Shown: positions 7,105 to 8,732 of the stretch, piece by piece | Layout of the letters: the number at the start of each line of letters is the position of its first letter | Position numbering within the stretch: position 1 is the first letter of the stretch | Assembly: GCF_022846255.1 (NCBI RefSeq) | Contig: NZ_AP025682.1 | Length of the DNA stretch: 64,000 nt | Source of the DNA: Escherichia coli | GTDB lineage: Bacteria; Pseudomonadota; Gammaproteobacteria; Enterobacterales; Enterobacteriaceae | Strand: one strand, 5' to 3' | Made by a program: the position numbers and the translations under genes | Notes under the pieces: generated by a model | Databases searched by the model: none | The model's input: the letters and a program-made list of their open reading frames with translations, nothing else | What the model was told of the DNA's origin: nothing

Positions 7105-7210
7105 AGGGCCGGGTTTTACAGCGTACTGGATAATTGACTATGCGTTGAAGTACAAATTGATAATGCCAGCCTGAAAACAGAATTCTCTGATCTATTTACA
7201 AGACTATATA

Positions 7211-7241
7211 CTTGACAACGACTCTCTTGTCAAGATATATT
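7211..7241. promoter_or_regulatory. palindromic element CTTGACAA-N8-TTGTCAAG with sigma70-like -35/-10 on both strands
   Basis: Plus strand: TTGACA (7212-7217), 18-bp spacer, TATATT (7236-7241); mirror-image TTGACA on the minus strand; lies in an ORF-free AT-rich stretch. Confidence 0.35.
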
Positions 7242-8732
7242 ATTTGAGAGTACCCCTGTGCCACCCTGTTATGGCTATGACTCGTGTTGGTGGTATAGGG
7301 TACGCTCTGATACTTTTAATTAGGTGAATATAGCGGTTCATTTTGGAGTTTTAACGGGTAATGTGGTTGGATTGTAATCGTCCTCTGTATTATAAAGTCT
7401 GGAGGTTGCTTTTGTAGCAATATTCTGATCTGACTCCTGCAATTGGTTTCCAATGTTTACATCATAAAATCCATTTATAATGAGGATCAATTTGTAAACT
7501 ACCGAGATCCTTATTTGGGCTTTATACCAAACTTACCTACGGTTCACTCTAAATTAAGTCATTCTGTTAGTAGCTGGATTTGCTGCGAGCTGATATTTTT
7601 CATATTTTTATATCGTGATTACCTGTTATGGACTGTTCTGCAGCTTAGATCTTAGTCAAAGCTGTGTATATTCATTACTATCGTTATCTTTTACTCGTAG
7701 GATGATTATATTGCTACCTGTACCGTTTAGTCATCGTAAGTGTAGTGGTGGCCGAGGAACACCGGATCGGTATAAGGTGAAAAAGTGCTTTTTCAGGTAT
7801 CCGCGTCAATGTTATCGTAATTTTTAGTATGACGATAACCTGCCGTGACCAGCATTTTGGTTAATAATTTCAGTATAGTATCCAGTTGTAGGTCCTGGCG
7901 TGAATAGGACAAACGTATTATCTGCAAAAACAATGCTCGTTCGGAGTGTCAGTCAGTTATTCTGGTTGTATTGGATCGAGCCCTGATTGCGTGTGATATG
8001 GAAATACTCAGTTTCATAATTGGCGATATCCCGGGAAGAACTAACAAGCTGCGTTGTAGTTTTAACTTTTGCCACAATTTCGTCATATGCTGAATTACGG
8101 TTGCAGTTCCCGCCAGAATAATCGACAAAATCGTAGCCAGCGCTAATGAAATTTAATCAGTCATAAATGAAGAGTACGCTAAAGGTTTCTGGTACTAACA
8201 AAATTCGTTTTGCCATTTCAATCCTCTGTGCAGATAATTTATTGTTGGAATGAACAGATTCCGGTTAGAAAATCACATGTTGCAATCACGAGTGGGGCAG
8301 GTTGCTTGTTCGGGGAAATAATTTACCTTGATAAAATATTAAAATTGTATATCAAGTTCTAAATACATCTCAATAAAATAAACTAATTTATTTTATTCGT
8401 TAATAATAGTTTATTCTGGAGAGGTACAGACGCGGGCAGTTCACCCAGAATATGATTACTGATACGTACCTGGTTAAACAGCCCCGATGTTGATATTCAG
8501 TAATACGAAGTTTACGACTATTTATCTGATTTCATTGTTGGGGATTTTTAATCTCGACTTAATGCTAAATACGGGCCACTTTGATGTCAGCCTTATCTGA
8601 AGGTACCGATAATGAACGGACATTCTACTATATAAATAGTTCACGATTAGAACTAATTTGTAGTACTATTATGAGTAATAGTGAATCTGGGGAAAATCAG
8701 GACATGGAGCATGGCATCATCATTTTCACGCT

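Follow-up and report, generated by a model that had tools for sequence, protein, structure and literature searches.

Decayed, AT-drifted relics of acquired genes form a general class in the genomic islands of enterobacteria. In Escherichia coli K-12, the gene yaiX is itself a pseudogene, interrupted by the insertion sequence (IS) IS2. In strain 7/2, genes for a PIG-L deacetylase, yaiP, an acetyltransferase and yaiO follow one another on the same strand, the last two separated by one base. The last gene of this series, yaiO, has been described as a narrowly distributed "orphan" gene of E. coli, which is expressed, is located in the outer membrane and has been used as an E. coli-specific target for the polymerase chain reaction (PCR) (PMC4453288). 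Here we analyse positions 7105-8730 of a stretch of 64,000 nucleotides (nt), referred to as the window. A sequence-only reading had described these 1.6 kb as free of open reading frames (ORFs), with a palindromic dual promoter and an orphan start site. We find that the greater part of the stretch, about 1.0 kb, is very probably a decayed pair of yaiX'- and yaiO-family pseudogenes; the coordinates of the features are collected in Table 1.

The homology to yaiO was missed by megablast, which gave no hit for 7105-8730 in 5,426 complete E. coli genomes, and was exposed only by the more sensitive blastn mode. In that search, positions ~7710-8472 match, with 70.5% identity (E = 3e-88), the same single site of thousands of E. 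coli chromosomes: the 5' two-thirds of yaiO and the 3' end of the acetyltransferase gene upstream of it. At the protein level, tblastn places YaiO residues 1-191 and 104-220 on the stretch in two frames (E = 7e-28 and 2e-10, respectively). A local DNA alignment, in which 686 of 1041 columns are identical, runs unbroken from 8472 to 7461, passing from the acetyltransferase gene into yaiO and reaching as far as the homologous stop codons. Relic and core YaiO share about 66-70% of their nucleotides and 47-50% of their amino acids (aa), and 122 of 258 residues are identical in the register of the core protein. Once repaired, the translation of the relic matches an E. coli YaiO-family protein over 99% of its length (E = 1.1e-42); its identity is 50% with core YaiO, 38% with a second E. 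coli protein of this family and 33% with the best full-length relative outside E. coli. The earlier reading had proposed looking for an intact longer ORF among homologues; intact relatives do exist, in the form of the YaiO family and, within it, core E. coli yaiO.

The likeness to core yaiO (PF19413) extends from start to stop, the two being collinear throughout, and includes the upstream neighbour. As in the annotated locus L003, where yaiO (3714-4487) and the acetyltransferase gene (4489-5070) are one base apart, the acetyltransferase sequence lies directly upstream of the yaiO relic on the same strand. The junction itself is preserved: AGGAGA-TTAA-A-ATG in the core operon corresponds to AGAGGA-TTGA-A-ATG in the window, with the same layout of Shine-Dalgarno (SD) sequence, stop codon, single base and ATG. 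The relic differs from the core gene in being dead, in being 12 GC points poorer and in its location, since it sits in a pheV island, whereas core yaiO lies between frmR and yaiP.

The same comparison accounts for the orphan start site. The sequence-only reading had pointed to a textbook SD and an ATG at 8216 on the minus strand, opening a frame of 19 codons, and all of these are present: AGAGGA (8227-8222) is followed at a spacing of 5 nt by the ATG, then by MAKRILLVPETFSVLFIYD and a TGA. The further open frame that it had reported is found as well; beyond the first TGA, 67 codons of this frame can be read before a second TGA, and 42 more after it. Because the layout of the junction matches that of the core yaiX-yaiO operon, the SD and ATG at 8216 are best read as the ancestral yaiO start, a fossil, and the 19-codon peptide as the first 19 residues of a YaiO homologue. 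In YaiO these residues, MIKRTLLAAAIFSALPAYA, would be a signal peptide, judging from their composition. The frame is ended by the first nonsense change, from GGG in the core gene to TGA here. Within 7105-8730 the longest ORF encodes 70 aa, which agrees with the description of the stretch as ORF-free to the extent that no ORF is longer than this; the description fails in that about 1.0 kb is recognisable, if dead, coding sequence.

The acetyltransferase part is a remnant of the 3' end of a yaiX-type gene. Its C-terminal 87 codons align with those of the E. coli yaiX-type LbetaH acetyltransferase, its stop is at the homologous position, and tblastn matches residues 107-193 to 8481-8221 (E = 8e-7). 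It differs in lacking the N-terminal 106 codons and in carrying four internal stops. Its 5' side is cut off: upstream of 8481 no similarity to the acetyltransferase gene was found, and the upstream genes yaiP and yaiS are absent.

Decay is spread over the whole of the yaiO relic. In the numbering of reference YaiO, six in-register stops fall at codons 20 (GGG to TGA), 88 and 141 (both TGG to TGA), 225 and 230 (TGA) and 238 (TAA). The indels comprise, in order, a compensating -1/+1 pair, then +1, -1, -9, +7, -15, -1 and -1, of which at least five (+1, -1, +7, -1, -1) are uncompensated frameshifts. The reading frame is therefore interrupted, unlike that of a functional protein-coding gene. Among 316 mismatches to the core sequence, 190 have G or C in the core and A or T in the window, against 74 in the opposite direction, and the GC content is 37.1% in the relic versus 48.8% in the core. 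The rates of mismatch to core yaiO at the three codon positions are 30%, 28% and 41%, with a faint excess remaining at the third position; in the acetyltransferase part, mismatches show no coding pattern by codon position. Neither the codon-position rates against core yaiO nor the differences between haplotypes carry a signature of purifying selection. This pattern of substitutions points to long neutral evolution under AT-biased mutation rather than to a recent loss. The earlier suggestion of a recently inactivated gene thus holds for the inactivation but not for its recency, in view of the six stops, the frameshifts, a nucleotide divergence of 30-34% and a codon signature that is almost erased. 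Low GC content, many nonsense and frameshift lesions, fragments of insertion sequences and a tolerated IS insertion are shared with other pseudogene remnants of enterobacterial islands; the relic is more heavily decayed than most annotated pseudogenes. We also observed, inside the acetyltransferase remnant at 8372-8401, an inverted repeat made of A and T only, AATAAAATAAA-N4-TTTATTTTATT, which is longer than the palindrome at 7211-7234 discussed below and is probably a by-product of AT drift.

Nine further loci were reached through the adjoining gene for an IclR regulator, in draft E. coli assemblies and metagenomes. Seven of the nine span the stretch and are identical to the window over 5040-12000 except for a few differences: two indels in units of 9 nt, both outside the stretch, and two single-base changes, one each in L009 and L010. 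In the metagenomic copy L012 (14508-14645), an IS1 end falls at the position matching 8183 of the window, 33 nt past the yaiO ATG and inside the 19-codon frame. The sole diverged copy is L002, a Logan contig of 2.7 kb (SRR1761716), which is 98.15% identical to the window, with 51 mismatches and no gaps. Since the alignment has no gaps, every indel is common to both haplotypes; no mismatch touches a stop codon, and L002 keeps every lesion. Over the first 130 codons, nine nucleotide differences between the two result in six amino-acid changes.

The differences between the haplotypes are clustered. The interval 8105-8443, which straddles the old yaiX/yaiO junction, holds 26 of the 51, corresponding to a divergence of 7.7% versus 1.0% elsewhere. 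Gene conversion from a resident core yaiO was considered for this patch and ruled out, as the derived states are mixed between the haplotypes; the patch may reflect recombination from an unsampled allele. Taken together with about 600 nt of flanking sequence that match nothing, its divergence hints at further alleles that have not been sampled.

Among 1.84 billion cluster representatives, a HMMER search recovered 56 relatives at E <= 1e-3 and no close intact relative of the relic. The best full-length match is 34% identical, and fragments of E. coli YaiO reach 54-57%. The single apparently intact homologue in the database, a protein of 130 aa (P0001), comes from L002 and has tryptophan at both TGA positions of the frame. 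The DNA behind it carries TGA at each of these positions and does not yield this protein under translation table 11; we rejected it as an artefact of a gene caller that reads TGA as sense (code 4). The same artefact explains P0058, a 207-aa entry from L002 that spans the palindrome. Such entries in protein databases can pass for intact homologues of a pseudogene.

These observations are consistent with the following history. A fragment of an operon of the yaiS-yaiP-yaiX-yaiO type would have been carried into the AT-rich pheV island, bringing along the last third of the acetyltransferase gene and a complete yaiO-type gene downstream of it. It would have lost the upstream genes and the promoter, and would then have evolved without selection, acquiring TGA and TAA stops, small indels and a strong drift from GC to AT. 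By this account positions 7105-8730 would be a gene graveyard in a horizontally acquired island, and would encode nothing functional today. What looked like 1.6 kb of empty DNA, "perfect" start site included, is shown to be dead coding sequence, an ordinary outcome of little import beyond annotation: the stretch deserves to be annotated as yaiX'- and yaiO-family pseudogenes, not mined for small proteins, small RNAs (sRNAs) or promoters. For the PCR marker, this means that some strains would carry a second, highly diverged and dead copy of yaiO; judged from the alignment, the relic appears too different at the published primer sites to be amplified. A bolder view, which we think unlikely, would make the relic the sole remaining vestige of another, deeply diverged yaiX-yaiO lineage that once moved on pheV-type islands and, separately, would have the palindrome drive an antisense RNA. 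If the former were true, the relic would mark the origin of an orphan outer-membrane protein family.

Several points weigh against reading the stretch as a decayed yaiX'-yaiO pair, or leave that account incomplete. The repaired translation scores 18.9 bits (E = 0.0016) against PF19413, below the gathering threshold of 23.9 bits, so that the assignment to the family relies on pairwise comparisons and phmmer; a decayed copy would be expected to fall short of the threshold. Searches of the raw 130-aa frame with Pfam and PADLOC found nothing. A relic of this age is also somewhat unexpected, as bacterial genomes tend to delete dead DNA. Finally, nothing in the E. coli genomes or plasmids searched matches the two flanks of the relic, which make up the roughly 600 nt mentioned above (7134-7461 and 8482-8754). 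We tried the left flank as a remnant of the yaiO-frmR interval and the right flank as a remnant of the 5' half of yaiX, and rejected both, the alignment scores being equal to those of shuffled sequences. Rfam gave no match at E <= 1 over 5500-10500, and the fold z-scores are unremarkable (-1.7 and -1.4 for the two strands of the left flank, -0.5 for the right flank).

The palindrome lies in the left flank. The sequence-only reading had described it as supplying a perfect -35 hexamer on each strand, and CTTGACAA-N8-TTGTCAAG does so at 7211-7234. The window has a single copy of it, its 16-base pattern shows no enrichment, and none of 100,044 species-representative genomes contains the exact 24-mer, which rules out its being part of a repeated or dispersed mobile element. 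Perfect 8-bp inverted repeats with spacers of 3-12 nt are found in 26% of composition-matched random sequences of 1.6 kb, and the window as a whole holds 64 of them. The palindrome is identical in L002; this conservation carries no weight, because only two haplotypes are available and they are 1.85% apart. We regard the palindrome as an incidental inverted repeat beside the relic.

A possible, though doubtful, alternative is that the palindrome does act as a promoter, on the plus strand if not on both, firing into the relic and producing an antisense or non-coding transcript. Such a transcript could be spurious, or could serve the gene of a TPR-repeat protein 1.5 kb downstream as a long 5' leader. 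The plus-strand match, TTGACA-18-TATATT, agrees with the consensus at 11 of 12 positions and is the best promoter-like site in 6500-9300; both of its hexamers are identical in L002, and AT-rich horizontally acquired DNA holds many spurious promoters, active or silenced by H-NS. Against this, promoter-like sites are not enriched in the region (13 versus 10.2 +/- 3.5 in shuffled sequences), and the inverted repeat is within chance expectation. On the minus strand, TTGACA-17-TATATA lacks the near-invariant final T of the -10 element; this site failed the scan rule and was read from the sequence by eye. No intact gene lies downstream of the palindrome on either strand, the plus strand having been checked to 1.5 kb, and no Rfam family is present. 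The arrangement resembles divergent sigma-70 promoters in that a symmetric element gives a -35 on each strand, with AT-rich hexamers at a distance of 17-18 nt; it differs from them in that only the plus-strand -10 passes the rule, there are no divergent genes and the site is at chance level. Of the dual promoter, therefore, the plus-strand consensus stands and the minus-strand -10 is weak; beyond the match to the consensus, the proposal is not borne out.

It is quite unlikely that the palindrome is instead an intrinsic terminator, of the old yaiO-type operon or of ORF 6700-7104, or an operator for a dimeric regulator. Its position would suit a terminator, 107 nt after ORF 6700-7104 and 228 nt past the stop of the pseudogene, and the plus-strand stem of 8 bp followed by ATATATTATT fits a permissive scan rule. 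The predicted hairpin energies, -11.7 and -12.3 kcal/mol on the two strands, correspond to z of about -3.2 on both. The stem, however, has only three GC pairs, the U-tract is interrupted (a tail of mixed A and U), and terminator-like sites number three where 1.4 +/- 1.1 are expected by chance. In addition, ORF 6700-7104 has no homologues elsewhere, and the 24-mer is found nowhere else.

We consider it highly improbable that the old signal-peptide region has been co-opted and that the 19-codon frame at 8216 now specifies a small protein or leader peptide with a function. Such a role would agree with the good SD, AGAGGA at its spacing of 5 nt, and with the presence of the frame in both haplotypes; the SD, the ATG and the first 19 codons are, however, already explained by descent from yaiO. 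Of the 26 differences between the haplotypes in the divergent patch 8105-8443, five fall in the 31 nt before the ATG, two of them within the SD (8225 and the 8221-8232 region), and a proline-to-serine change lies inside the peptide. One copy has IS1 inserted within the frame, and no intact minus-strand gene follows for a leader to regulate. The suggestion of a small leader peptide or sRNA locus finds no backing in these data, given the absence of Rfam hits at E <= 1, the plain fold z-scores of the flanks and a frame whose 5' end, together with the bases before it, is where the two haplotypes diverge most. The SD and ATG are more simply the inherited start of a dead yaiO-family gene.

That TGA is read as tryptophan or selenocysteine, or is read through, and that the locus encodes a real protein of at least 130 aa has next to no probability: P0001 has tryptophan at both positions and two of the TGAs fall on conserved YaiO tryptophans, but the DNA of P0001 carries TGA at both sites, TGG to TGA is a one-step G-to-A nonsense change, the host is E. 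coli or Shigella, the remaining stops stand where YaiO has G, Q, L or D, and the TAA stop together with frameshifts that break the frame under any code rules out recoding as tryptophan or selenocysteine.

Table 1. Features in and around positions 7105-8730 of the window
Feature	Start	End	Strand	Remarks
Scrap, 57 nt, resembling the IS200/IS605 terminal segment just after tnpA	7077	7133	+	49 of 57 bases identical, E = 2e-7
Left flank, 328 nt	7134	7461		between the IS-like scrap and the pseudogene stop; contains the palindrome
Perfect 8-bp inverted repeat with 8-nt spacer (palindrome)	7211	7234		TTGACA on both strands
Full-length YaiO-family (outer-membrane beta-barrel) pseudogene	7462	8216	-	ancestral ATG 8216-8214, ancestral stop TGA 7464-7462
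3' remnant of yaiX-type LbetaH acetyltransferase gene	8218	8481	-	last 87 codons and stop TGA 8220-8218
Shine-Dalgarno sequence AGAGGA	8222	8227	-	from the yaiX/yaiO junction; alignment to L003 4489-4500
Right flank, 273 nt	8482	8754		between the acetyltransferase remnant and the start of TPR-module homology
Intact gene for TPR-repeat protein	8772	9800	+	Pfam TPR/ANAPC3 hits; right boundary of the stretch

At its right end (60800-64000), the window matches the E. coli speC-yqgA-tRNA-Phe region with 99.7% identity; a tRNA-Phe gene lies at 61022-61097, and an integrase gene comes next. This identifies the window as chromosomal DNA of E. coli or Shigella that carries a low-GC island at tRNA-Phe (pheV). 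The stretch 7105-8730 sits in the part of the island with the lowest GC content (32-40% across ~5000-12000). Its surroundings are degraded too, and contain an IS2 fragment, a truncated PfkB kinase gene and the IS200/IS605 scrap.

The scrap on the left matches E. coli 042 (L004 2501-2557) with 86% identity, beside a partial IS200/IS605 tnpA, and the segment is present in 219 of the 5,426 genomes; the tail of TnpA matches the region by tblastn (E = 5e-4). The scrap and the 3' end of ORF 6700-7104 overlap, in different frames. This ORF is itself unsupported: it has no homologue outside this locus, and gene callers are inconsistent on it. We rejected it as a decayed TnpA, as only the equivalent of its last ~18 codons is similar, and in another frame. 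Further to the left, an ORF with a helix-turn-helix domain and a PfkB-type sugar kinase domain meets an IS2 transposase fragment (4963-5508 on the minus strand, and 3852-5058); the kinase gene is cut at this fragment after 94 of the 302 positions of the Pfam PfkB profile.

To the right of the stretch, the TPR gene shares 70-71% identity with one annotated in E. coli CM2010-0578/1. Homology with the TPR-gene module of that strain begins at 8755, and the start was therefore placed at the ATG at 8772, to which the start of the annotated coding sequence maps; an ATG at 8742 is an alternative. At 9277 in this gene, the window lacks 9 nt (TTTTCGTGT) that are found in all seven other copies of the locus, an in-frame indel of three codons. 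The minus-strand ORF 10429-11739, for which Pfam gave no hit, encodes a membrane protein of 436 aa and contains, at 11162-11233, a 9-nt tandem repeat, GTGATTCTC, encoding repeats of His-Glu-Asn. The copy number of this repeat varies by -18, -9 or +27 nt among otherwise identical loci, which makes it a hypervariable in-frame repeat. The TPR and membrane proteins have no exact match among proteins because the window differs from the other copies by these 9-nt indels. Elsewhere in the island, positions 40421-40651 on the plus strand match InsQ/TnpB of E. coli 042 by tblastn (32% identity, E = 3e-7) with an internal stop, and look like another remnant of an IS200/IS605-family tnpB.

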